Shown here: positions 1-16,719 of the stretch, piece by piece
Numbering within the stretch: the first letter of the stretch is position 1
Layout: each line of letters starts with the position of its first letter
Source of the DNA: Desulfurococcaceae archaeon
GTDB lineage: Archaea; Thermoproteota; Thermoprotei_A; Sulfolobales; Desulfurococcaceae
Assembly (NCBI GenBank): GCA_038824035.1
Contig: JAWBBW010000021.1
Location: 1-21,532 of the forward strand
Length of the DNA: 21,532 bases
Direction: 5' to 3'
Notes under the pieces: model-generated
The model's database searches: none
What the model was told of the DNA's origin: nothing
The model's input: the letters and a program-made list of their open reading frames with translations, nothing else
Position numbers and translations under genes: made by a program

Positions 1-873
1 TCCTTTATCATCTTCGAGCGTCATGTATTCATTCCAAAATGTTATCTCGTATAGCCCTTTCAACCCCTTGACAACGACTTTCCCTATATCATATCCACCG
101 CGTGTTTCAAGAACCACGTCTTCCACAACGCCTTTGTCGACAATGCTACCACCCCTAAGATACTCTATGATCTTCATACAGGCTTCCTCAACATCGCCGG
201 TGTACCTCATCAATATCGAACCTATCTCCATCGCTTTCTTCAAGGCACCTGGAGCAGCATTGGCTTCTAGGTAACCAGGTGTCACGGGGTTTCTCGTGAC
301 AGCCACCATTCCTCCTGCCTGCACAGCGGCTTCCCTGACGAGCTTGTCTACGCGGTCTAGGCTACCGCGTGCCACGATCTCCACGTACATGCCTCTCTCC
401 TTGTCTCCCCCTACTGCCACCTGTATGGATACATAATTCCTCAATTTATGTAAGCCCATGGACCCCATTACGCCTGTTGGATGAGCTCTCCCATCTGCTG
501 GGGCATCCACGACTGGTATTCCAAGAGCCGATGCCGGGATCCATCCATTTGTGGATGATGTGCCACCGTTTTCCGAGGATATAAAACCGGCTATTTCCAC
601 GTCGCTGTTTTTCATAAATAGCTCGGCTGATCTAATCATGTGGGCTGGCTTAACGTACTTATCCTTAGCAGCGGGGGCGCCTACTAGCGACGCTGTCACA
701 ACAATGTCTGTTATCTTCAACTCATCAAGGCTGACTATGTATAGGTCTCCGAACTCAAGGGCTAGCCTCGCTATTGATAGACCGGTCTTGATATCTCCCC
801 CTCCACCACCACCTAGAAACGACCCGCCTAGGACTATTGACTCAGCTATTTTCTCATCAACTCTTAGCCTCAA
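1..873 (-). CDS. DUF917-family protein (S-methyl thiohydantoin desulfurase-like); 3' end beyond the left window edge
   Basis: Not in the ORF track; translated by hand. TTG start at 873 with GGGTGG about 5 nt upstream and an in-frame TGA just before. Open frame to base 1: LRLRVDEKIAESIVLGGSFLGGGGGD...VGAP...SSENGGTSSTNGW...VVDAPADGRAHPTGVMGSMGL...RGGYDIG...FWNEYMTLE. The LGGGGG, E-x-GG, D-x4-GRA-x-P and F-x-NEY motifs fit DUF917. Confidence 0.85.
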   Translation of the reverse strand, partial: MRLRVDEKIAESIVLGGSFLGGGGGGDIKTGLSIARLALEFGDLYIVSLDELKITDIVVTASLVGAPAAKDKYVKPAHMIRSAELFMKNSDVEIAGFISSENGGTSSTNGWIPASALGIPVVDAPADGRAHPTGVMGSMGLHKLRNYVSIQVAVGGDKERGMYVEIVARGSLDRVDKLVREAAVQAGGMVAVTRNPVTPGYLEANAAPGALKKAMEIGSILMRYTGDVEEACMKIIEYLRGGSIVDKGVVEDVVLETRGGYDIGKVVVKGLKGLYEITFWNEYMTLEDDKG

Positions 874-885
874 TCAAACCACCCA

Positions 886-1554
886 TTAGGCCTTGATCAA
901 ACAACTACGTTGTCTAAGGACACTGAGGGTCACTGCACCACTTGCTATTACTGGGTCCACTACCGGTATCCTGGCTATCTCCTCTGCTATTTTCGCAAAC
1001 CCTATTGTTGAGTAACCAGTACAGCCCAGGAGGATTACATCTACGTTGTTATCGAGCAATTCTTCAAGGGCTTTACGCGCTGCACTTTTACCCTGATCTG
1101 TCAATAGATCAAGAGTGTTCTCCACGCCACGTGGCTTAGCCTCTGCCACGAGGTGTTTCCCGAGTATTCTCTTAATAACCCCTGGTGTTTCCTCAGTGAG
1201 ATTTAAAACCCCTATTCTCTCGCCGAGAGAGAGGGCTATAGAGGCTGCAGCCGATCCAGCCCCTATGACGGGTATTTTCAGCTCTTTCCTGGCCTCTGCC
1301 ACAGCTGGATCGGCTGCACAGCTGATCACGACTGCCTCAACGCCCTGTTTCTCAAACTCCCTTGCAAGCCTAAGTATTTTAGGCTTCGCTTTCTCCTCCG
1401 ATTCTCTGTCATATATGCCTTTTGGCTGATCCTCAATGCTTCTACTGATGACCCTTAATTCCGGAAAAGCCCGTTCTATGAGTTTTCCATGGAGATTTAA
1501 CAACTCCTCGTCGTTGATGGTTATAACCCTAATAAGTCCGATCAAGTGTGCCAT
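886..1554 (-). CDS. Asp/Glu/hydantoin racemase family protein (hydantoin/allantoin racemase-like)
   Basis: 222 aa with the two catalytic-cysteine motifs ISCAADP and LGCTG plus IPVVDPV; GAGGTGG ribosome-binding motif upstream. Confidence 0.88.
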   Translation of the reverse strand: MAHLIGLIRVITINDEELLNLHGKLIERAFPELRVISRSIEDQPKGIYDRESEEKAKPKILRLAREFEKQGVEAVVISCAADPAVAEARKELKIPVIGAGSAAASIALSLGERIGVLNLTEETPGVIKRILGKHLVAEAKPRGVENTLDLLTDQGKSAARKALEELLDNNVDVILLGCTGYSTIGFAKIAEEIARIPVVDPVIASGAVTLSVLRQRSCLIKA

Positions 1555-1566
1555 GCCCCCACCTCT

Positions 1567-2511
1567 TCACATAGGCATACTTCTTTTCAATACATGCGAG
1601 ATCGATCCATGGATCTTCGTTATGATATCCCATTCCTCTGGGTCATAAAACCTCGCCCTGCCCATTGTGAAGTCCTTAGCCACCTCGACTACGAACCTGG
1701 TTGCTTGTTCAAGTGCAATGAAATTGGTGATGCCTGTGCCAGAACCAGGGAGGGCTAGTCTAGCGGTTATGGCCACACCCACTACGGGTGCGCTGGTGTA
1801 TAGCCATGGTTGCATCATGCTATTGATATGATATATCGGCGTTGAGAACGGAGTTATGTCCTGCATCGTTATCGGCACTATTACAGGTGGTTCACCAGTG
1901 ACCCTCATGTATATGTCTATTAAATCCTGGCTAACCTTGAGAATCCAGCCCTCCTTAACCGTAGGCGTGATCGCGAACCCTGTGTGCTTTATAACCCAGT
2001 TGGCCTTAGTGGCGTCAACTGAGAGAACCGCGTCCATGTCGGCTGTGACCTCTTTTCTCAGCAATGTGAATATATCAACCGGGGATTCCATCATTGGGAC
2101 CGGCTTATGGGGCCTAGTCGGCGCGTTTGGACATATATGGGTTGTTATGACCACGTCTCCTGGCAATATATCGCCTCTCTTACCCATCTCGGCAATCTTG
2201 TATGCAGACGCTAACGCAACTATTGCACCATCAGCATCGGAAACCATGCCTATGTAAGCCGGCCGAGCCCCAATACCACCAAGTCTCCCAATAACCCCGA
2301 GAGTCGGGGCTGACCCACCCCTTGTTTTGCCCGATGCCCCTGGGATTCTTATTTCAATGAAATCCGTGGACCCCTTTGGGCCTTGTAATGTCTCCACCTT
2401 GATCTCCATTGAGAGGTCCTTTTCCTCGAAGAATTTCTTAACACCCATGCCATTGATTTTGGGGTTTTCGAGGAGATCTATTATCTCCAATACATGTTTA
2501 AGAGTGGACAT
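1567..2511 (-). CDS. DUF1177-family protein
   Basis: 314 aa with GSTDFI, PTLGVIGRLGGIGARP, VSDADGA, THICPNAPT.PH.PVP, SVDATK, QDITP and YHINS motifs; family recognised from memory and from the neighbouring DUF917/racemase/OPT genes. Confidence 0.85.
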   Translation of the reverse strand: MSTLKHVLEIIDLLENPKINGMGVKKFFEEKDLSMEIKVETLQGPKGSTDFIEIRIPGASGKTRGGSAPTLGVIGRLGGIGARPAYIGMVSDADGAIVALASAYKIAEMGKRGDILPGDVVITTHICPNAPTRPHKPVPMMESPVDIFTLLRKEVTADMDAVLSVDATKANWVIKHTGFAITPTVKEGWILKVSQDLIDIYMRVTGEPPVIVPITMQDITPFSTPIYHINSMMQPWLYTSAPVVGVAITARLALPGSGTGITNFIALEQATRFVVEVAKDFTMGRARFYDPEEWDIITKIHGSISHVLKRSMPM

Positions 2512-2606
2512 GGTCTCGCCGATTCATAGGTATATGTTCTCTGAGGTAATATTTTTATTTTCACGCCCAGAAATAGTTATACATGTCAACATATAGAGGT
2601 GTCCAC

Positions 2607-4256
2607 ATGGTTAATAGCTCTAAAGTGGGGGAGAGGGAATATCACCCCAGAATCTACGAGCCCATAGTGCTAGGGATGGGGCTGGTGCTTGCGATATTCG
2701 GGGCAATCATTGGCATGGAGTTAATAAGCAGAGTGGGCATTAACCCCAATACATCGATAATAGGGGCATTAATAGCGATAGCGTTCTCGTATATACCAAT
2801 AGAGATCGCAAGACGCGTGAGAAATATCCACAGAATAAACCTGATGCAAACAGTGATCTCGGGGGCCACTTTCCAAGCTGGTAATGTTATATTGCTAACA
2901 ATAGCTGTTCCATATTTACTAGGCCTAGTTGAGGGAGCTTATTTCTACGGCGTTGTAATCGGTGTTTTGATCGCAGGGCTCATAGACATATTACTAGCTA
3001 ATTGGATATTTGACTCGCCTTTCTACCCAGCTAGAAATCCGTGGCCACCTGGCGTGGCAACAGCTGAGGCTATAAAAGCCGCCATAGGCAAGGGCAAGAG
3101 AGCTCTCTTATTACTATATGGCATGATATTTGGAGGTGCATTGACATATCTAGGTTATCCAGGAGATGTCGTTGGAATAACACTCATAACCCAAATAGTG
3201 GCCATAACGGCCTTTGGAATAGGACTAATACTCAGGGCTTATGGACCGCAATTAATTGGCATAGATCTCTTCAAGATATATGCACCACAGGGGATAATGG
3301 TTGGTGCCGGTATAGCAGCCCTCATACAATTCGTCATATTATATATGAAAGTAAGAAAAGAGGGTAAAAAAGCCTCTCAAAACACACCTGGATCAGCACT
3401 TGTCACAGGCATTTCCACAACAATTGTCACAGCCGATGTAGCCCTGAGAAGAATGGTCCTTGCACTAGTCATGTGGATTATCGGGGCGTTTATAACAGGG
3501 GTTTTAACGGGGTTGAACGGCTCAATGAACCCTGTATTGTTTATTATATGGGCCCTGTACACTGGTTTCCAAGCATGGTTCACGACACTTATATGTGGTT
3601 TATCAGGTATGTATGCTGGGTGGTTTCCCGCATTCGCCACGGCGTTAGCTTCGCTGGTTATAAGCCTACTCCTAGGGTTCCCACCTCTGGCGGCTGGCAT
3701 TAGTGTCGCATATGTGGCTGCCACTGGGCCCGGCATGGCCGATCTAAGCTACGACCTCAAAACAGGTTGGATACTTAGAGGCGAGGGCAAAGACCCTGAT
3801 TTCGAGAGAATTGGTAGGAGGTGGCAATTCTACGCAAAGGTGTTATCCCTGGCAATTGCATTGATACTAGTCATGATATTTTACCGCGCATATTTCGAAG
3901 CATTGAAGTTATTCCCACCGGCATCCAGGACATTAGCGGCAACAGCCGAGGCCGTTGCAGACCCCCAACTAGCTCGCTGGTTATTGACCTGGGCACCGCT
4001 AGGTTTCATACTACAGTTAATAGGTGGGCCGGAGAGACAAATAGGCATCTTGCTCGCTACGGGACTAATGATCATGAATCCACCCGCTGGCATAGCTGTC
4101 TTGGTGACAGTGGCTGCTAGGCTCATCCTTATCAAGATCTATGGTGTTGAGAAACTCAGAGATATATTCTATGTAGGCGGCGCCGGCGCTGTGGGAGGCT
4201 CAGCCATAATCTCGTTCATAGTGTATACGCTGAGGGCTTACCTAGGGCTTAAATAA
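2607..4256 (+). CDS. OPT/YSL-family oligopeptide transporter
   Basis: Long polytopic membrane protein with PNTSIIGA, N.MQT.ISGATF, PWPPGVATAE, DL.YDLKTGW and GGP.RQ.GIL motifs. Start moved from 2583 to ATG 2607, which has GAGGTG upstream. Confidence 0.85.
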   Translation: MVNSSKVGEREYHPRIYEPIVLGMGLVLAIFGAIIGMELISRVGINPNTSIIGALIAIAFSYIPIEIARRVRNIHRINLMQTVISGATFQAGNVILLTIAVPYLLGLVEGAYFYGVVIGVLIAGLIDILLANWIFDSPFYPARNPWPPGVATAEAIKAAIGKGKRALLLLYGMIFGGALTYLGYPGDVVGITLITQIVAITAFGIGLILRAYGPQLIGIDLFKIYAPQGIMVGAGIAALIQFVILYMKVRKEGKKASQNTPGSALVTGISTTIVTADVALRRMVLALVMWIIGAFITGVLTGLNGSMNPVLFIIWALYTGFQAWFTTLICGLSGMYAGWFPAFATALASLVISLLLGFPPLAAGISVAYVAATGPGMADLSYDLKTGWILRGEGKDPDFERIGRRWQFYAKVLSLAIALILVMIFYRAYFEALKLFPPASRTLAATAEAVADPQLARWLLTWAPLGFILQLIGGPERQIGILLATGLMIMNPPAGIAVLVTVAARLILIKIYGVEKLRDIFYVGGAGAVGGSAIISFIVYTLRAYLGLK

Positions 4257-9711: not shown

Positions 9712-11772
9712 TTACGACGACAATATCAGTTCAACGGGGTAATACACGCATGCGCCTTGTCCACCCAGAGCTGTGCATAGTTCTAGTTTCAGCTTCACCA
9801 CCGCCATTTCATTCATTGCCGTGAAATACCCAGAGAGAGCTATGAAATTGTTACCGCCAAGGTTCAACTGCACTATACTCGTGAAGGTAGATACTGGTAC
9901 ACCGTTCCTGATGCTTATATTCGTAGAGCTCGTAATGCCCTCAATCCACATATCCAGGTTCAAAGCATATGAAGTGGTAAAAGCATCGAGTATTAGCCTA
10001 GCATACAAGACCTGGGTGGTGTTTAAACGTAGAAATCTAGTTGTCGTGTTAAACAACGATGCCCCCGATACTCGTAACGATACATTAGCACTAGTCTTAT
10101 TGGATCCCAGGTTTATGGATATCGAGCTCGTCGCCAAGGCGTAGACATCCCCACCAAGCACAGCATTGTCCAGTGGAACACTTAACCCCCCGCAAAGATA
10201 TGTATCGGGATATCTCACCAATATCTTTCCATCAATACCCGTGCCCACAACAAGGTCTCCAGTAACATTGAGGATGAATGCTGATGCCGGAGCCGTTGTC
10301 GAGTTAACCAAGTATCCCAGGTTATCCCAGACCTCAACCCTCATACCCGTGTAGAAACCCATGAAGTACAGGGATCGTGGGTCCACCGTGGATACTATGA
10401 AATCCTCGAACCTGAACCATCGGGGTGGAACAGCGTCTATTGTTACACCTGCGTAAGCTGGGGTGAACCTTGTATCCCCCGTATCGCTGGCTGTTAGGGT
10501 GGCTACTAGTGCTCCGGTATCGTCGTATATCCATAATGTGAAGGTGACTGCAGTTGCTGTTACAGTGTAGTTCAGTACGAGCGTGTACCACCTGGTAGCA
10601 CTGTAGCCTGGAACACTCGTACTGCCTATTAGTCTCCATCCTCCATCCCACTTCCAAACCTCGGCTCTGCTAGCGTAAACCGATATCTCGTAGAGTCTGC
10701 TCCTGTCAGCGTTCAACAGTCCTATTCCCTTGTAGCCATCCCATGTCTCTGCTCTAACCTTAACAGAGACCCAGAGAGAGGTGTAACCATCTATCCTCGT
10801 GTTCCAGTAGTACTGTGATGCCCTACCCACGCCACCGTCGTTGTCTCTTCCTCTGAGCGCATTCCCCTTGAAGCCTCCACCAGCTGATAACCCCCATACA
10901 CCCCCGTAGCTCGTCCACCCGGATACGGGGTATTCTTCGAAGTCCGTGTAGGTGAGTGCTCCTCTACTTGTTCTTGTGAGCGCTGTGCAGGTATAATTAT
11001 ATGGTAATGTTTCAAGTGTTGCTGGAGGTGGTTGTGGGAGTATAGTTAGAGTGGAGGGATAGTAGATGAAAACCGAGGCAAGGGATGAAAAGGCTAAGGT
11101 AATGATCATTGCGTAGACCAGGCCTTGCCTGACCTTATTGTATTGTGTATTGTGGCTTAAGATGTGTTTGGACAACTTCATTGAAACCAGCATGATGGAT
11201 GCGTAGGAAGTCGTGATTGCAGTGGCTACTAGTGTCAGCATCAACCAATTATTCAACGCTAACCCGAGGACACTTGTCCGCTCTAGCCTGATCCCAATGA
11301 ACGTTATGTCTCCAGCCAATGTCCTCAATGTAATGAAGTCCCCGATAAGGCTTTGAAACCTAGCCAAATCCATCATCATAGCCCTGTATATATAGCCGTT
11401 GAAAACTCCGTAAAGGAGAATTAGTGCTGTGGCACATCCAGAGACAAGCCCCGCTGTTAGCTGGAGTCTTTTCCTATAAATAATTGACAAGAATGAAACA
11501 ACTAGTATCGTGAGTGATGATATCGTAAATGATAGGGATACATGTCTTATGTAGTCTGTGTGAGGCATGTAAACTGGCTGTTGATCCACGAGATAGTATA
11601 GCCTGTAATCGAGGATTGAGTAATAGCCTTGTATATAGCCGTGGAAGTAATAGACAGGGAGCAAAGCCACCAGTAAATAAATAGACGATGCTATGACACA
11701 CGTCAACCCCGAGGTCAAAATAAGCCACTCGACTAGTCTTTTTAACCTGTTTTCACTTGTAGCCCAACCCAT
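9712..11772 (-). CDS. Membrane protein with internal pilin-like cleavage site, lectin-like beta-sandwich insert and split pilin domain; putative minor pilin / tip adhesin
   Basis: About 5 hydrophobic segments in residues 1-232, then SLA|SVFIYYP (233-239) matching ATA|SVFVYYP of the 194-aa protein; Trp/Tyr-rich domain at about 275-461; ISINLGSNKTSA matches IKVDIGANKTSA; ends CVYYPVELILSS. The CDS is secure, the function is inferred. Confidence 0.6.
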   Translation of the reverse strand: MGWATSENRLKRLVEWLILTSGLTCVIASSIYLLVALLPVYYFHGYIQGYYSILDYRLYYLVDQQPVYMPHTDYIRHVSLSFTISSLTILVVSFLSIIYRKRLQLTAGLVSGCATALILLYGVFNGYIYRAMMMDLARFQSLIGDFITLRTLAGDITFIGIRLERTSVLGLALNNWLMLTLVATAITTSYASIMLVSMKLSKHILSHNTQYNKVRQGLVYAMIITLAFSSLASVFIYYPSTLTILPQPPPATLETLPYNYTCTALTRTSRGALTYTDFEEYPVSGWTSYGGVWGLSAGGGFKGNALRGRDNDGGVGRASQYYWNTRIDGYTSLWVSVKVRAETWDGYKGIGLLNADRSRLYEISVYASRAEVWKWDGGWRLIGSTSVPGYSATRWYTLVLNYTVTATAVTFTLWIYDDTGALVATLTASDTGDTRFTPAYAGVTIDAVPPRWFRFEDFIVSTVDPRSLYFMGFYTGMRVEVWDNLGYLVNSTTAPASAFILNVTGDLVVGTGIDGKILVRYPDTYLCGGLSVPLDNAVLGGDVYALATSSISINLGSNKTSANVSLRVSGASLFNTTTRFLRLNTTQVLYARLILDAFTTSYALNLDMWIEGITSSTNISIRNGVPVSTFTSIVQLNLGGNNFIALSGYFTAMNEMAVVKLKLELCTALGGQGACVYYPVELILSS

Positions 11773-12854
11773 CTCCTATCACCCTGGTTGAACCAGTACA
11801 CGTAGGCGTATGCGTACTCGGCTTGCACTGGTGGCTCAATAACAACATATGAGAAGCCCTTGACGATCACTGTCTTATTGCTCCATGCCCAGGTGTTGTT
11901 GACAAGGTATCTCATCGCGATATCTATTACTACTGGGAAACAATTGGGGTTTTTCGCGATGAGAACGCCGTTCACTACGCTCAGCTCTGGGCTCAACCCA
12001 CCGACCAATAACTCGTATCTACCGCTGAGCCAGGCCACGTTGTTGAACTCTCCTTCAACCCATATCTCCAGGGGCACGCCGTTCTCAAACGCTCTCCGTA
12101 ATAACTCGTGATCAGGCTTCACGATCACGGTCTTATCGAGCACTGAGATTATTTCCACTGGTGTCGAGTTCACAACGACTCTTGCACTTGTCAATGACAA
12201 AGCACCTGTGTATTTTATGCTCACAGTGCACGTGGTGTAGTCCATGTAAACACCAGCCAGGTTCACAACTCGTACAATCAATTGCGATGGCATCACCGTT
12301 CTTGGAACAACTGCATAGACAGATGTCACTAGGAGAATCCAAACACACAACACGACGATATATAAAGAACCGATGACAGGTGTTTTAATGAAATCGCGGA
12401 GCGTATAGGCGATCACGGCTATTATCAAGGGTATCCAGAGCTCTCTGTGAATTATGAAAACAACTTTCCCCTTAACCATGTCCATGGAGATGGGGCTATC
12501 AGGCATATCTACGTTATCACCCTTTGTTACAACCATGGTTTTATCTCCACTAACTGTGTTCAAGTGTAGAAAACCCACAACCCTGTGAACCACGCAGTGG
12601 CTAGGAGTCACACAGTAAACCACTACATCGCCAACATTGAAATCCATGTTTAAGTAGATAACCATGTCTCCAATCCTAACGACCGGTTCCATGCTATCCG
12701 AGATAACCACTGACATCCCCATGATGTTCAAGTAACCGAGCCTCGAGAGAAGCGTAAACACAATGACAAGCATGGATAACAAGAAAAAGATACTTGAAAC
12801 AAGGTAAAGGGATTTAACAAAAAAACTTTTAAATCCAGCAAACCTAGCCTGCAT
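11742..12854 (-). CDS. Signal peptidase I, archaeal/ER/SipW type (S26B), with long C-terminal extension
   Basis: TM segment then SDSMEP (catalytic Ser), GD, VVHRV (His general base) and TKGDN..PD; followed by two more TM segments and about 185 aa of beta-rich sequence. Overlaps the next gene by 31 bp. Confidence 0.9.
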   Translation of the reverse strand: MQARFAGFKSFFVKSLYLVSSIFFLLSMLVIVFTLLSRLGYLNIMGMSVVISDSMEPVVRIGDMVIYLNMDFNVGDVVVYCVTPSHCVVHRVVGFLHLNTVSGDKTMVVTKGDNVDMPDSPISMDMVKGKVVFIIHRELWIPLIIAVIAYTLRDFIKTPVIGSLYIVVLCVWILLVTSVYAVVPRTVMPSQLIVRVVNLAGVYMDYTTCTVSIKYTGALSLTSARVVVNSTPVEIISVLDKTVIVKPDHELLRRAFENGVPLEIWVEGEFNNVAWLSGRYELLVGGLSPELSVVNGVLIAKNPNCFPVVIDIAMRYLVNNTWAWSNKTVIVKGFSYVVIEPPVQAEYAYAYVYWFNQGDRRWVGLQVKTG

Positions 12855-12860
12855 TCTAAA

Positions 12861-13445
12861 TTACCTTCCCACGGCTGGGTTCGCGGGCGGAGTCTCCGTT
12901 GACGGCGTGTACACCAGCTTAGCGCTCGCTGTGTAAGATGTCCCTGCGATGACTGTTCCCTCCGGTATTTTGACGTAGATGTCGATTTGCCAGACCTTAG
13001 TAGCTCCCAGTAGACCAATGCTTATTGGCTGGTTAATGCCTGGATTGGTTACATCGAGCTCTCCGACCTTGGTGTTATCTTCGTAGACGAAGAGCTTCAC
13101 GGTGCTATCTGCTGGCAGGTTGTTCGACACGGAGGTGAAAACAATGTAGACGTTCATCGCGTTGTCATCGTTGTTCACTATCCGTAGTACATCCTTGTAG
13201 TAGTTCTCCTGGTATGTTGGGTGGATCTCGATGCTCGCCGATGTCTTGTTGGCTCCAATGTCTACCTTTATCTGGTTTCCTGTGCCGATGTCGGGTTGAC
13301 CAGCGTTGCTACCCTGCTCGAACACGACTCCCGGTTCCACAGGTTGAGCCGTGATATTTAATGGATAGTAGACGAAAACCGATGCTGTTGCTATTGTCGT
13401 TGCGAGTATTAGTAATAAGGGGGTTATTAATGTCTTTTTATCCAT
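12861..13445 (-). CDS. Secreted beta-rich protein, putative major pilin of TasA/archaeal bundling pilus type
   Basis: 21-aa signal peptide (MDKK, hydrophobic core, A-T-A), mature start SVFVYYP, about 173-aa beta-strand-patterned body with no membrane anchor; 6 bp upstream of a SipW-type peptidase. Confidence 0.7.
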   Translation of the reverse strand: MDKKTLITPLLLILATTIATASVFVYYPLNITAQPVEPGVVFEQGSNAGQPDIGTGNQIKVDIGANKTSASIEIHPTYQENYYKDVLRIVNNDDNAMNVYIVFTSVSNNLPADSTVKLFVYEDNTKVGELDVTNPGINQPISIGLLGATKVWQIDIYVKIPEGTVIAGTSYTASAKLVYTPSTETPPANPAVGR

Positions 13446-13505
13446 GTTATCTATCCCTTGGTGGTTTATTTAATTCCCCGCTAAGATATATGAGGCATTG
13501 ACGTG

Positions 13506-13514
13506 TATATAAAA
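13506..13514 (-). promoter_or_regulatory. Putative TATA box of the pilin-peptidase-adhesin operon
   Basis: Minus strand reads TTTTATATA about 60 bp upstream of the ATG at 13445. Confidence 0.5.
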
Positions 13515-14110
13515 GCGGGGGTTACGGATTTCTCATATTTATATATCTAGCTAGGCCTAGAGACACGTGTCTTGCCTAGTTTTTACATATAACCGTGTCA
13601 GCTATGATCTAGGCTGTTCCCAATAAGCCATCACCATCTATATCCAAATACATAGCTATATCCCCTTGTTCACCGAGACTCGAAAACATCACTAAAACAC
13701 CTACAGAACGTTCCATCGCTTCTTATATCGGAGACCAACTCGCACGATCACATGAACTGATGTAGCTCTTAGGGCGTTTGAAGCGAATAACGCATCGGAT
13801 TCCACGTAATCGTGGCGTACATCTCCAGAAGGCCTGGGGGTTAAAGGGGTTGGATTCCTCTTTCACCGTTTCTAGCCCAGTAGCATTTTAGACAGCCGAT
13901 CACATCTGGGTTTCAAGGACAACAGTCGAGGCACCGTGGTGGTAGGTGTACCTTGGAACCTCGTGTATCTTTTCTTCGATAATGCTTCAGGCCCCCTCCT
14001 CGGGAAGTCTCTAAACAACAATACGATCGGAGATCGGCTTGAACACTATCACGGCGAGGTATTCATCGATTTTTTACCTAACAGCGCATACATTGAGAAC
14101 GGTGTTTGGT

Positions 14111-14530
14111 ATGGGTGACTGGGCGATCTATGCATTGATGAGCGCATTCACAGCGGCATTGGCGACTATTCTGGCTAAGATTGGATTACAGGGAGTCGAC
14201 TCTATTACAGCCACTGCGCTTAGATCTATTGTCATGACATTCCTAGCTTTCACTGTGCTGTATTTTCACAGAGGGCTTAGGGACGTGTTCAACCTAACTC
14301 AGAGAGAATACTTATTCATAGTGCTGAGCGGGGTAGCGGGTGGGGCTTCATGGATATTTTACTTTACAGCTCTACAGAAAGGAGAGGCCAGTAAAATCGC
14401 GTTGATCGATAGAGCGAGCTTGTTATTTGTGCTGGTATTATCTATTTTAATATTGAGCGAGGAAATAACCCCTAGGAAATTGATCGCCACGTTATTGATA
14501 TTCACAGCATTAGTGATACTCGTGGCATGA
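14111..14530 (+). CDS. EamA/DMT-family membrane transporter (single domain)
   Basis: About 139 aa; W..YAL.SA..AAL..I.AKIGL.GVDS..ATALR and SG...G.SW.FYF.AL..G.AS motifs. ATG 14111 preferred to TTG 14039. Confidence 0.88.
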   Translation: MGDWAIYALMSAFTAALATILAKIGLQGVDSITATALRSIVMTFLAFTVLYFHRGLRDVFNLTQREYLFIVLSGVAGGASWIFYFTALQKGEASKIALIDRASLLFVLVLSILILSEEITPRKLIATLLIFTALVILVA

Positions 14531-14645
14531 CCTCTGGTCAACCCTTAAACGAATAAAGTACCAAGTACTTGTTTAAACACGGATGGTTAGAAAACGTGAT
14601 CGCCGCTGAGATATGGGAGGAATTATTTAGTTTTAAAACCGGGTT

Positions 14646-14822
14646 TTAGGAGAGATGATATCTAATAATGGATTCCAATATCACTACAACTCCTACAAGT
14701 GCTATTATCCACGGCCAGAGTGCATGGAAATAGAACAATAGCGTTAATCCCACTAGGAACGATCCAGCAATCACTCCGTGAATTACTTGCCTGGATTTCT
14801 TTTCACGCTCTTCTTCGCCCAT
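14646..14822 (-). CDS. Small two-TM membrane protein (58 aa)
   Basis: ATG at 14822 directly preceded by GGGGTGAT; MGEEEREKK followed by two hydrophobic helices containing LWPWII. The upstream part of the 102-aa track ORF looks non-coding. Confidence 0.6.
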   Translation of the reverse strand: MGEEEREKKSRQVIHGVIAGSFLVGLTLLFYFHALWPWIIALVGVVVILESIIRYHLS

Positions 14823-14950
14823 ATCACCCCCTAGATGCTGATGATTTCCAACCCTTAATATATTTAGTGGAATTTTCATGAAAAGCGAGATCAGTGAATG
14901 CATTGGTATCCTAGCGCTAAGAGGGCTGGGAAATAAGGGGGAAGGAGCAC

Positions 14951-16264
14951 TCAATGCCCACGACGCAACTTAATCACCACAAGTATCATTGCTATCACAG
15001 CCACTAATACCCCTATGAGTATTAACATCTCTAGCCGCATATACCACGGTCTCTCGTATTCCAGGATAATCAATGTTAAGTGATATTCTTTCGTGGTATT
15101 TCCACTAGCCGCTATAAGCACTAATGTATATGACCCGCTTACCGCTTCCCGGGAGATATTGATGAGTAGCGTGGTCGATGCCGGCGGCATGACTGATTCC
15201 GGGTTGAAAGTGTATGAAACCCCTTTAGGTGTGTTTGTAATGCTCAGTGAGACTGGTTTCACGGGCTCTCCTTCACTTAAAACCACTACTCCTATGATAG
15301 CTGAACTGCCTCTGTAGACCTGGATATTACTGGGCTCTACTTGGATATTGAAATCAAATGGCTTCATCTCTCTGAAATTCGCTCTTAGACTTATCCGGCC
15401 ACATATAAAGAGCTCTGTTGGGTTAACATGTCTATCGTATGTCGAGCACTCTGCGTATATATCTGACCATTCCTCGAATACATATCCCTCACTCGGTATA
15501 GCCGTTATATATACATGTGTTCCATTATCAATCCAGTACTCGCCAGGAGAGGGATTGGTGATACCATCGCCCCTGCCAATCCCTATGTAAACCAGGTATT
15601 CCACGTGGTAATACCCTGTTAAAACACCGGGACCTGTTACTATTATAGTGGTGCAACCGGCCTCGTGATTGGCATATCTCTTATACCCAGTTGATTCCAT
15701 GAACTCCTCGAAACAATAAGTGTGTTGAGAACCCTTATCCCACCAATATGAGAATGGAAGGAGATCTATGTCTATGAATGCCCCGTCAACGGATACAGGT
15801 GCACGTGGAAATGCTATGTCGAGTCCAAGCCCCCTGGTCTCTATAACCCATAGGTATTGTACCCGGTACTCAGCTGTGATAACGCCGTCGACCTCGGGGA
15901 CAGATAACACGCCTCCCATCTCGGTTGCGATCCCATTCGTGGATCTCCAGGCATAGCGTTTATTCCCCGTGATCGATGGTATATATTCAGCCCATTGATA
16001 TGAATGTGTTGAACCAATACTCCAATTAAAGCTCACTGGCAAATCCACGACACGGTAATCCACGTCATCAATGGTTAGGACAATGGTATCTGGTGAAACA
16101 TCTACCCCGACCCCGGTGATTGAGAAAGTTATAGTTACCACCTCTTGTTGAGGTATTGCCAGGCATCCATGTATCTGTAACACTAATACATGTAACAGGG
16201 AAAGGCAGATCAGCAGATTTAGAAAACAGGCAATGGTTTTAGACAAATTAAGCCCCTTGTACAT
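14951..16264 (-). CDS. Cell-surface protein with tandem beta-repeats (divergent InlB B-repeat-like), Ig-like domain and C-terminal membrane anchor
   Basis: N-terminal hydrophobic signal; repeats LPVSFNWSIGSTHSY / LPFSYWWDKGSQHTY; G.TNPSPG.YW...GT.V.ITAIP.EGY.F..WS motif; terminal TM helix plus KLRRGH basic tail. Confidence 0.72.
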   Translation of the reverse strand: MYKGLNLSKTIACFLNLLICLSLLHVLVLQIHGCLAIPQQEVVTITFSITGVGVDVSPDTIVLTIDDVDYRVVDLPVSFNWSIGSTHSYQWAEYIPSITGNKRYAWRSTNGIATEMGGVLSVPEVDGVITAEYRVQYLWVIETRGLGLDIAFPRAPVSVDGAFIDIDLLPFSYWWDKGSQHTYCFEEFMESTGYKRYANHEAGCTTIIVTGPGVLTGYYHVEYLVYIGIGRGDGITNPSPGEYWIDNGTHVYITAIPSEGYVFEEWSDIYAECSTYDRHVNPTELFICGRISLRANFREMKPFDFNIQVEPSNIQVYRGSSAIIGVVVLSEGEPVKPVSLSITNTPKGVSYTFNPESVMPPASTTLLINISREAVSGSYTLVLIAASGNTTKEYHLTLIILEYERPWYMRLEMLILIGVLVAVIAMILVVIKLRRGH

Positions 16265-16434
16265 GGGGGTGATAAAGCCCTTATTATAACTTCATGCAAT
16301 TGATTACGACCAATTCGTCACGGTGAACGATAAGTGCTGGGTCAAGAGATCGAGTTTGATTGATTAACAACTGATTACTTTATCCAAGTAATGCTTAAAT
16401 ATACAACCCGGCATTTCACAGGCAAGGGGGCGTT

Positions 16435-16719
16435 ATGAGACCTGGTGGAAACCTCGCCTGGGCTTTAATCACATTCCTGATCATGTATACAATGACGTTG
16501 GCTGTTTCCAACGCCTTTTACGTATTTATAGCGGCGTTGAGGCTTGTTTTGCCCTGGATACCAGAGACATTTGATCTCTCTAAATGGCTCTCCTATCTAA
16601 GATTCTCCCTGTGGTTCTCGTTCATAGTGTCGGGGGTCTTAATGATATTATCTCTTGTTTATTATAAACGGAGAAGAGAAGCCAAGGATTACATAGAGGA
16701 GGTTGTGAGAAAACTATAA
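16435..16719 (+). CDS. Hypothetical small membrane protein
   Basis: 94 aa, two hydrophobic segments and a charged C-tail; AGGGGG upstream of the ATG and TTAAATA further upstream; occupies its own intergenic gap. Confidence 0.6.
   Translation: MRPGGNLAWALITFLIMYTMTLAVSNAFYVFIAALRLVLPWIPETFDLSKWLSYLRFSLWFSFIVSGVLMILSLVYYKRRREAKDYIEEVVRKL

Follow-up and report, generated by a model that had tools for sequence, protein, structure and literature searches.

A conserved fusion of a four-helix membrane protein with a tail-bearing filament subunit in a Desulfurococcaceae archaeon, and a predicted internal signal-peptidase site

The window analyzed here, i.e. the whole 21,532-nucleotide stretch of contig JAWBBW010000021.1 (assembly GCA_038824035.1) from a hot-spring Desulfurococcaceae archaeon, contains on its minus strand three closely packed open reading frames (ORFs), which in the ORF listing of the window run from a pilin precursor through a signal peptidase to an uninterrupted frame of 686 amino acids (aa; 9712..11772), the subject of this report. 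On sequence comparison this 686-aa protein is a natural, conserved fusion of a four-transmembrane (4-TM) protein with the complete precursor of a large subunit that carries a pilin-like tail. We propose, with a probability of roughly 0.6, that it is an archaeal membrane "polyprotein", which a signal peptidase, most likely that of the operon, cuts after Ala232.

The 686-aa protein and its internal signal-peptide-like segment

We computed the continuity and conservation of the fusion, its split forms, synteny, folds, catalytic residues and the conservation of the predicted site. An AlphaFold2 model of the protein, built on 45 sequences, had a mean predicted local distance difference test score (pLDDT) of 88.3. 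The model contains helices at residues 6-37, 76-98, 103-137 and 175-204, in agreement with hydropathy, and together they make up a 4-TM membrane module (residues 1-197; 11182..11772, minus strand, as for all parts of the protein) with block-mean pLDDT mostly 76-91. The module is predicted to have its N-terminus inside the cell, with two conserved loops (41-60 and 146-165) on the outside, each modeled with three beta strands. It is followed by a basic, variable linker (residues 198-216; 11125..11181), which is equivalent to the n-region of a signal peptide, would be cytoplasmic and is disordered in the model at residues 201-214 (pLDDT <50). Then comes a fifth hydrophobic helix (residues 217-232; 11077..11124), equivalent to the h- and c-regions, which is modeled with low confidence at residues 212-232 (block-mean pLDDT 51-57) and ends in S-L-A. 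Residues 233-249 are coil, and a confident all-beta ectodomain takes up residues 250-686. Hydropathy and model therefore agree on the layout read from the DNA in an earlier note, i.e. four transmembrane (TM) segments, a basic loop and a fifth helix that ends in SLA|SVFIYYP at residue 233.

The fusion is conserved across many assemblies. Of the homologues retrieved from the database (45), 33 span 94% or more of the 686 aa at identities of 39-98%, another eight (P0038-P0045, 449-501 aa) are short forms limited to the C-terminal 65-69%, and the remaining four are fragments. Alignments of the large protein were made with 23 sequences first and later with 45 (40 long and five short forms). All 40 aligned long forms carry the N-terminal module with common motifs, no long form has a stop codon between the two parts, and the five aligned short forms have an ordinary signal peptide directly before A|S[VTA]FVY. 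Contigs from three sequencing runs, belonging to three studies, span 11056-11181 without indels (X1, 10936-11751; X11, 11033-11242; X4, 10984-11237); the runs were available as contigs, and the one from an RNA library (X11) is not proof of transcription. The earlier note had allowed that two genes might have fused, possibly through a sequencing error. The fusion itself stands, as a conserved natural one, and the sequencing error does not, given the 33 near-complete homologues, the 13 fused frames among 68 matches in the order (described below) and the indel-free contigs.

Some loci depart from this picture. Two hot-spring contigs contain joints with unknown letters between their halves, 10995->12862 in X1 and 10974->11764 in X2, in which the beginning of the mature large-subunit sequence is joined to the end of the gene for the pilin and for the peptidase, respectively; they probably represent relatives with another gene order, perhaps pilin followed by large subunit, or with diverged N-terminal modules or DNA. 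At locus L008 (complete genome G028, ~2850-2975, minus strand) the signal region of the large subunit (LALSISLVYA|SVFIYYP) is in frame and lacks a preceding start codon, and a TTG-started frame (MRHIHKPNNFF) enters the signal region across a run of seven T, which points to a shift of the frame by one base, through faulty sequencing or a genuine break in the gene. At L058 (genome G426, 2-2130, minus strand) the fused gene lies in two frames, of 341 aa (the module and the start of the large part) and 393 aa (the remainder), and from its sequence is a frameshifted or broken copy. A large subunit of the short form (500 aa, LIAIA|SVFVYDP) is encoded next to a large membrane protein at L009 (genome G034, 1495-2997, minus strand), and neither a pilin nor a peptidase gene was found within the 4.4 kb fetched; the large subunit can therefore occur outside the operon.

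The large part of the fusion begins like the mature pilin. Window positions 11076-11056 (minus strand) encode SVFIYYP, residues 233-239 of the 686-aa protein, and positions 13382-13362 (minus strand) encode SVFVYYP, residues 22-28 of the pilin; the earlier note had given these coordinates and an identity of 19/21 nucleotides, and both are correct. This is the highest identity of any pair of 21-mers between the two genes, and when the codons of the pilin gene were shuffled as a control the best 21-mer matched at 15-18 positions, with 0 of 100 shuffles reaching 19. The likeness decays outward, to 41/81 with 30 extra nucleotides on each side. Because the equivalent pair of motifs is only 13/21 (L022), 17/21 (L024) and 14/21 (L008) identical in three related loci, the match in DNA is mostly a by-product of the conserved peptide, and it is the peptide that is conserved. 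Gene conversion or a nucleic-acid element, considered as a source of the match, was rejected in view of the same three loci.

At the protein level the likeness extends beyond the motif. An hhalign comparison of the pilin alignment (40 sequences) with that of the large protein (45 sequences) matched pilin residues 3-45 to residues 214-256 over 43 columns (probability 97%, E 1.2e-10), and on this profile evidence residues 214-256, i.e. the fifth helix and what follows it, are homologous to the signal peptide and donor-strand tail of the pilin. BLASTP between the two tails gave 10/22 identical residues (E 0.006). The donor-strand-like tail of the large protein, SVFIYYPSTLTILPQPPPATLE, occupies residues 233-256 (11005..11076), and within it S233 and F235 are invariant in the 23-sequence alignment and at least 90% conserved in the 45-sequence one. 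A second likeness to the pilin lies further downstream, where residues 549-567 (10072-10128; IxLGSNKTSA) match pilin residues 57-75 (13221-13277) in BLASTP (7/19 identical, 15/19 similar, E 0.006). This patch is absent from the hhalign output, and it gives a hint only that the C-terminal domain was derived from a pilin head.

The remainder of the ectodomain is made of beta domains. A fold search of the 686-aa model, which covered residues 269-466, places a concanavalin A (ConA)-like lectin or carbohydrate-binding module (CBM)-like beta sandwich at residues ~270-465 (10378..10965). In the VIA comparison the first row was 4b1m_A (CBM66; Z 18.6, root-mean-square deviation (rmsd) 2.3, 154 residues aligned), followed by 49 more at Z 12.9-17.8, many of them lectins or CBMs; block-mean pLDDT in the domain exceeds 90 and the Foldseek matches are likewise lectin-like. 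Matches to the binding domains of botulinum and tetanus toxins reflect a generic lectin-like jelly-roll at low template-modeling scores, and we attach no functional meaning to them. Further all-beta domains fill residues 466-686 and, with the stop codon, positions 9712..10377 (block-mean pLDDT 81-97). From these models the released part looks like an extracellular adhesin. The earlier note had called it a minor pilin or adhesin, and the donor-strand tail of a pilin is indeed present; "minor pilin" is only partly apt for a protein with a ConA-like lectin/CBM fold and further beta domains.

The signal-peptide features of the fifth helix have been retained inside the long forms. The predicted cut falls between A232 (11079-11077) and S233 (11076-11074). 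The fifth hydrophobic stretch averages 16.0 residues, compared with 21-27 for TM1-4, and the uncharged run is 15-17 residues in most long and in all short forms; a short h-region of this kind distinguishes cleaved signal peptides from signal anchors, according to the excerpts of Nilsson, Whitley and von Heijne (PMC2120157). At -1 the 45 sequences have A (41), G (3) or S (1), at +1 there is S in 41 of them, and 31 obey the -3 rule (S 13, A 11, T 5, G 2). A232 is the sole position of the fifth helix conserved at 0.8 or above. The linker before it is the least conserved segment of the protein (0.26, with 0/19 columns at or above 0.8) and is nevertheless basic, with a mean of +3.72 for K/R minus D/E in the 40 long forms and with K199, K202, K215 and R217 among the linker basic residues of the window protein. 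The segment 198-232 thus has a positive n-region, a short h-region and small residues at -1 and mostly at -3, the features of a signal peptidase I (SPase I) site, and these support the internal signal-peptidase site proposed in the earlier note. Its location alone does not fit an ordinary signal peptide: ~197 residues of the ORF precede it in the 40 long forms, and only the five short forms have it at the N-terminus.

The same counts bear on topology. K/R minus D/E is +0.85 for the N-terminus and +2.17 for loop 2, with the linker highest, compared with +0.25 and +0.17 for the two long loops, and all nine N-x-S/T sequons lie after residue 233, with none before it. These values and the model together point to an N-in topology, in which the cut site would be outside; as the fifth helix is odd-numbered, the site would come to lie on the outer face. 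The fusion would then be topologically seamless, i.e. a module with both ends inside followed by an N-in/C-out signal peptide.

The membrane module, its gene neighbors and the filament operon

The earlier note had described the N-terminal ~230 aa as a "giant signal peptide". This description must be abandoned, as residues 1-200 are a conserved family with a structure of its own, in which the outer loops are best conserved, and they are no targeting sequence; the accompanying suggestion in the note, that the N-terminal part forms an independent membrane protein, is upheld. In the 40 long forms mean conservation is 0.62 and 0.53 for the two long loops, compared with 0.43-0.60 for the helices. 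A profile of the 4-TM part, searched against 1.84 billion representative proteins, found 110 matches at E<=1e-3. Most of them (89) are under 260 aa in length, two are intermediate, and 19 have at least 500 aa, with the module N-terminal in all 19. Alignment shows that the free 4-TM proteins end immediately past TM4.

We also searched genomes. Of the 251 genomes of the order, 64 were positive, with 68 matches in all; 13 of these matches belong to frames of at least 680 aa (fused), and the frames of the others measure 80-266 aa. Sampling of the phylum (401 genomes) gave 38 positive genomes, with fused frames also outside the order, and the five loci read outside the order all run pilin, peptidase, fusion (5/5). 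In family f13 none of the 38 genomes was matched by the profile.

The module goes with the peptidase gene. At 29 of the 30 loci read around module matches, the stretch that encodes the module, free or fused, either begins where the peptidase gene ends or overlaps that end. Only genome G028 departs from this: its pilin, large-subunit and peptidase genes lie in a row, and its free 4-TM gene (195 aa) follows the peptidase at a distance of 2.3 kb. Genome G023 has first a pilin (AFA|SVFVYYP), then a 491-aa large subunit with its own N-terminal hydrophobic leader, then the peptidase and last a free 4-TM gene of 206 aa, which overlaps the peptidase gene at its end. Together with the 89 short database matches, the free genes of G023 and G028 answer the check proposed in the earlier note, which was to see whether homologues encode the N-terminal domain as a separate gene. 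The large subunit thus lies between pilin and peptidase in G023 and G028, and apparently also at L041, L043, L044, L046, L053 and L055, where its C-terminal end alone is visible beside the peptidase gene. At L037 and L048 the pilin, peptidase and 4-TM genes are followed by unrelated genes and the large subunit is not adjacent. By these sequence comparisons the 4-TM module is an unannotated family, usually encoded as a separate gene of ~200 aa directly after a dedicated SipW/Sec11-type peptidase.

Named families gave no match to the module. Pfam (the whole ORF and residues 1-200) and NCBIfam (the whole ORF) matched nothing in the 4-TM part, and Pfam searches of 14 database and two locus-derived free 4-TM homologues returned chance matches below threshold only. 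The ESM Atlas gave unnamed archaeal clusters of ~200 aa at 0.86-0.87, under the level that counts. DUF5305 (PF17231) was not found at E<=1 in 17 proteins of the 4-TM family, and hhalign gave a probability of 1.2% for a relationship between the module and the polytopic N-terminus of the AbpX-type peptidase encoded in the same genome.

A quick tree of the module, supported by the Shimodaira-Hasegawa-like approximate likelihood ratio test (SH-aLRT), was built on 106 rows after removal of four shorter than 150 aa. Sixteen of the 19 fused forms fall in one clade (SH-aLRT 99) and three elsewhere, and the well-supported branches force at least three changes. Because the position of the large subunit varies among loci, the fusion looks like a relocation in which the large-subunit gene moved to the end of the operon and the stop codon of the module was lost.

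The first gene of the operon encodes a 194-aa pilin precursor (12861..13445, minus strand) with a predicted signal peptide at residues 1-21 and a mature protein that starts, at ATA|SVFVYYP, with an N-terminal donor-strand tail. The database holds 78 homologues at E<=1e-3, of which 40 sequences were aligned, including the window pilin and three from related loci. In the A|SVFxYYP motif F24 and Y26 are invariant and A21, S22, V23, Y27 and P28 are at least 90% conserved, so that the pilin sequences, like those of thread loci, have a predicted SPase I site directly before a conserved aromatic-rich N-terminal tail. A profile of the pilins matched a single PDB sequence, 7pnb_A (the Sulfolobus acidocaldarius 0406 thread; E 0.0077, full length), and the pilin sequence by itself matched none. 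The AlphaFold2 model of the pilin (pLDDT 91.3) also had 7pnb_A as its best Foldseek match (E 9.2e-9, template-modeling scores 0.59/0.62), with 7ueg_A at E 3e-6. In VIA, 7pnb_A aligned with the model at Z 15.2 (rmsd 3.3, 162 residues; model 22-192 with chain 24-206), the runner-up was 7ueg_A (AbpA of the Pyrobaculum bundling pilus) at Z 12.1, and all others had Z <=7.4. Residue 22 of the model aligns with residue 24 of 7pnb_A and residue 25 of 7ueg_A, which are the first residues seen in the solved filaments according to the excerpts of PMC9715654 and PMC9245690. The pilin matched no Pfam family at E<=0.1, and so neither TasA nor camelysin. One pilin homologue is named "DUF1102 domain-containing" at its source; the window pilin itself has no DUF1102 match.

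Because the profile and structure matches favor 7pnb_A and then 7ueg_A, we assign the pilin, on sequence and model, to a thread-like (Saci_0406-like) group within the TasA superfamily of donor-strand filaments. A hallmark of threads, as given in the excerpts of PMC9715654, is an N-terminal Asp whose amine (Asp24) forms an isopeptide bond with Asn57 of subunit n-2. The first mature residue here is Ser (occasionally Ala) in the pilins and Ser in 41 of the 45 large subunits, and because +1 is Ser, not Asp, we call the locus thread-like and not a strict thread.

The second gene encodes a 370-aa SPase I of archaeal/ER type (11742..12854, minus strand), and its end overlaps the start of the fusion ORF by 31 nucleotides. 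It scores 61.2 bits against TIGR02228 (cut-off 51.85, E 1e-16) and 36.1 bits against the SipW model (E 4.6e-9), below the cut-off of 190, and by this measure it is not SipW itself. In 22 peptidases from related loci S54 (in S-M-x-P), M55, P57, H90 and D119 are invariant and D113 is at least 90% conserved, and from these catalytic residues the enzyme looks active. An N-terminal TM helix is followed by the catalytic domain (S54, H90, D113, D119), two more hydrophobic segments and a C-terminal domain. The region from ~190 to 370 (11742-12300), i.e. the two extra hydrophobic segments and the ~180-aa C-terminal domain, has a conserved NPNCFP motif and conserved Cys and Tyr; by topology the domain would be outside the cell, where it could be chaperone-like or accessory.

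The genome holds three SPase I genes, one of housekeeping size, one of AbpX/Tafi type and the operon enzyme, which is therefore an extra, dedicated copy. The first (L061, contig C7, 46943-47347) lies in a 157-aa frame, is the top TIGR02228 match of the genome (103.4 bits) and is presumably the housekeeping enzyme. At L062 (contig C8, ~13246-16629) a 399-aa SPase I with a polytopic N-terminus of ~250 aa is followed by a DUF5305 gene (E 3.1e-15), and by sequence this pair matches the AbpX/Tafi-type peptidase and accessory protein of the 2025-2026 papers.

The operon is flanked on both sides by unrelated housekeeping genes, among them FeoB, an EamA transporter and a DtxR-type regulator. A further probable surface protein is encoded 1.5 kb from the operon, at 14951-16264 (minus strand); it has 437 aa, begins with a signal-like segment, ends with a membrane helix and includes a domain resembling InlB B-repeats (PF18998, E 3e-6).

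Proposed processing and the alternatives

The retained signal-peptide features make internal cleavage by signal peptidase the best reading of the fusion, and the model that we propose infers topology, cleavage, strand donation and a role for the 4-TM part. The 4-TM part would insert into the membrane with both termini inside, and the fifth helix would then act as an internal signal peptide, with the ectodomain carried across the membrane. On the outer face, a signal peptidase, most likely the one encoded just upstream, would cleave behind Ala232 and set free a 454-aa subunit with SVFIYYP at its N-terminus. This subunit would donate its tail to an open pilin groove and so cap or nucleate the filament, with its lectin-like domain as the likely adhesin; the 232-residue remnant would stay in the membrane and act as the free 4-TM protein does beside its peptidase. 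There are precedents for the second half of this scheme. The N-terminus of TapA resembles the donor strand of TasA, and TapA is thought to nucleate fibers after processing by SipW (excerpts of PMC9674648), and a capping or nucleating role has also been proposed for AbpB (PMC9245690, in excerpt) and Saci_0405 (PMC9715654, likewise).

Several points weigh against cleavage. At -3, 14/45 sequences have L (7), V (6) or I (1), which is less typical of a cut site, and the short form of G023 has a poorly matching site (TGLD|SLFFVFNY). The conserved motif at +1 to +7 is explicable by strand donation alone, which leaves the -1/-3 residues and the length of the h-region to argue for the cut, and the thread hallmark that would call for a free N-terminal amine (the Asp24-Asn57 isopeptide) is of no use as support with Ser at +1. 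The topology was derived from charge counts, sequons and the model, and the cut itself is predicted from the sequence pattern alone. Internal cleavage by signal peptidase occurs in the bacterial cytochrome b/c1 precursor. Cuts behind a polytopic domain are, in the excerpts consulted, mainly viral or eukaryotic, as in viral glycoprotein precursors and astrotactins.

The alternative that survives best is that the fusion stays uncut, as the earlier note had also considered. The fifth helix and the 4-TM bundle would then anchor the subunit, whose tail would plug the cell-proximal pilin groove as a membrane anchor or terminator. This would suit what is known of threads, whose polarity is unknown and for which a cell-proximal cap is one of two published models (excerpts of PMC9715654), and membrane anchors have been proposed for Tafi (TafF; PMC12337348, in excerpt). 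A fusion of cap and membrane protein would also be a simple tether for a filament, and cleavage is only predicted. However, all 45 sequences keep a 16-residue h-region and Ala, Gly or Ser at -1 while other positions of helix and linker drift, for which an anchor has no evident need, and the split forms give a secreted subunit with an ordinary signal peptide. The tail in the solved thread is partly buried in the next two subunits, according to the published legend, which leaves scant room for a helix attached at +1, and a lectin-like domain would be odd at the membrane-proximal end. We therefore regard an uncut anchor as unlikely.

A variant of the cleavage model keeps the cut at Ala232|Ser233 and assigns it to a housekeeping signal peptidase, with the operon peptidase and the 4-TM protein serving otherwise, e.g. 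in pilin-only processing or in assembly. The genome does have an SPase I of housekeeping size (the 157-aa frame on another contig), and the authors of the Pyrobaculum archaeal bundling pilus (ABP) locus assumed a generic peptidase there (excerpts of PMC9245690). The gene order speaks against it, as the peptidase gene adjoins both the pilin gene and the 4-TM or fusion gene in 29/30 loci and its end overlaps the start of the fusion in the window, and so does the Bacillus system, in which the operon-encoded SipW processes both TasA and TapA (PMC9245690 and PMC9674648, in excerpt). This division of labor is decidedly improbable in our view.

Translation or transcription might instead start internally, at Met194 or Met198 (11193/11181), and give a normal precursor, with the long form minor or a non-functional read-through. 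ATG codons at residues 194 and 198 do precede the basic linker, and a contig from an RNA library covers 11033-11242, although a start is not readable from contigs. Against this, only 17 of the 40 long forms have a Met within the stretch equivalent to residues 190-218, at non-aligned positions, and an internal start is therefore no general answer. Read by eye, the sequence upstream of 11181 has neither an A/T-rich box nor a purine-rich stretch for ribosome binding, and none of the long forms has a stop codon between the parts. An internal start is very improbable indeed. That the ORF is an assembly or sequencing artefact joining neighboring genes can practically be dismissed even for a metagenome-type assembly (29 contigs), since near-complete homologues come from many assemblies, fused frames recur in the order and in other lineages of the phylum, and contigs of three runs bridge the junction.

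A further and more tentative reading, possible but less probable than not, concerns the free 4-TM protein. It may be the missing membrane platform of thread-type filaments and partner of the peptidase, with a conserved outer beta-sheet that receives freshly cut donor-strand tails, and the fused lineages may deliver the first, capping or nucleating subunit as part of the platform. Each peptidase-platform complex would in that case process the substrate tethered to it a single time and start a single filament in place, and the fusion would amount to a membrane "polyprotein" of archaea that joins a substrate to the machinery for processing and assembly.

The assembly machinery of threads is unknown according to the excerpts of the 2022 and 2024 thread papers (PMC9715654 among them), and the 4-TM family, tied to a dedicated peptidase at 29 of 30 loci, is a concrete candidate for it. 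As Rosetta-stone evidence, the fusion ties the subunit that bears the tail, the cap or adhesin, to the 4-TM protein. Confirmation of the internal cut would make this a natural archaeal example of a polytopic membrane protein that signal peptidase divides into two functional products, of which we found no description in the literature searched. For annotation, the result is a warning that fused ORFs of this type should not be trimmed to an internal start.

Relation to known filament systems

The thread, ABP, TasA/TapA/SipW, AbpX and Tafi loci share a common logic of pilin, tail-bearing accessory subunit and signal peptidase, and the operon described here follows it. Statements about these systems refer to the excerpts of the cited papers. 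The closest system is the thread of S. acidocaldarius (pilin Saci_0406, 7PNB; PMC9715654). It has the same pilin fold, being the best structural and sole profile match, and likewise an SPase I site directly before an aromatic-rich tail that is used in donor-strand complementation. Its operon also encodes a second tail-bearing subunit, Saci_0405, the proposed cap or nucleator. The window locus differs from it in the Ser at +1, in having its own operon peptidase and a 4-TM protein, and in the large tail-bearing partner (454 aa when mature), which includes a lectin-like domain and forms one polypeptide with the 4-TM protein.

The tapA-sipW-tasA operon of B. subtilis (PMC9674648, PMC9245690) shows the same three-part logic, i.e. 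a fiber subunit, an accessory protein that mimics the donor strand, and an operon-encoded ER-type peptidase that processes both. However, the pilin has no Pfam TasA/camelysin match and its structural likeness to the TasA fiber reaches Z 5.5 only, and TapA has an ordinary N-terminal signal peptide, with no 4-TM partner mentioned in those excerpts.

The Pyrobaculum ABP (7ueg_A, PMC9245690) is the second-best fold match of the pilin (Z 12.1). Beside its pilin is AbpB, a multi-domain beta protein proposed to give the first donor strand and to act as adhesin, and its operon includes three uncharacterized proteins with four predicted TM helices and, according to the authors, N-terminal signal sequences, which we set beside the 4-TM family by description. 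In contrast to the window locus, no dedicated peptidase was found there and the excerpts describe no fusion (PMC9245690).

The AbpX and Tafi loci (bioRxiv 10.64898/2026.01.04.697558, PMC12337348) combine TasA-superfamily pilins with a dedicated SPase I, a DUF5305 accessory protein thought to assist the peptidase, and predicted tip or anchor proteins. The 4-TM module is not DUF5305, however, and the fusions described for those loci join DUF5305 to the peptidase, not an accessory protein to a substrate. Two homologues found here, P0026 and P0179, come from Zestosphaera sp., and the Zestosphaera example of the AbpX preprint may be near this family. The literature searched mentions neither a 4-TM family tied to the peptidase in thread-like loci nor its fusion to a cap subunit; the supplements of the AbpX preprint lay outside that search and may list a homologue as a "tip protein".

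The proposed processing finally resembles the internal cleavage of membrane polyproteins, where a hydrophobic segment behind TM helices likewise serves as an internal signal peptide and two functional products result. The cases named above are eukaryotic or viral, or respiratory enzymes, whereas here the segment would release an archaeal filament subunit from a protein whose gene is coupled to that of the peptidase itself.

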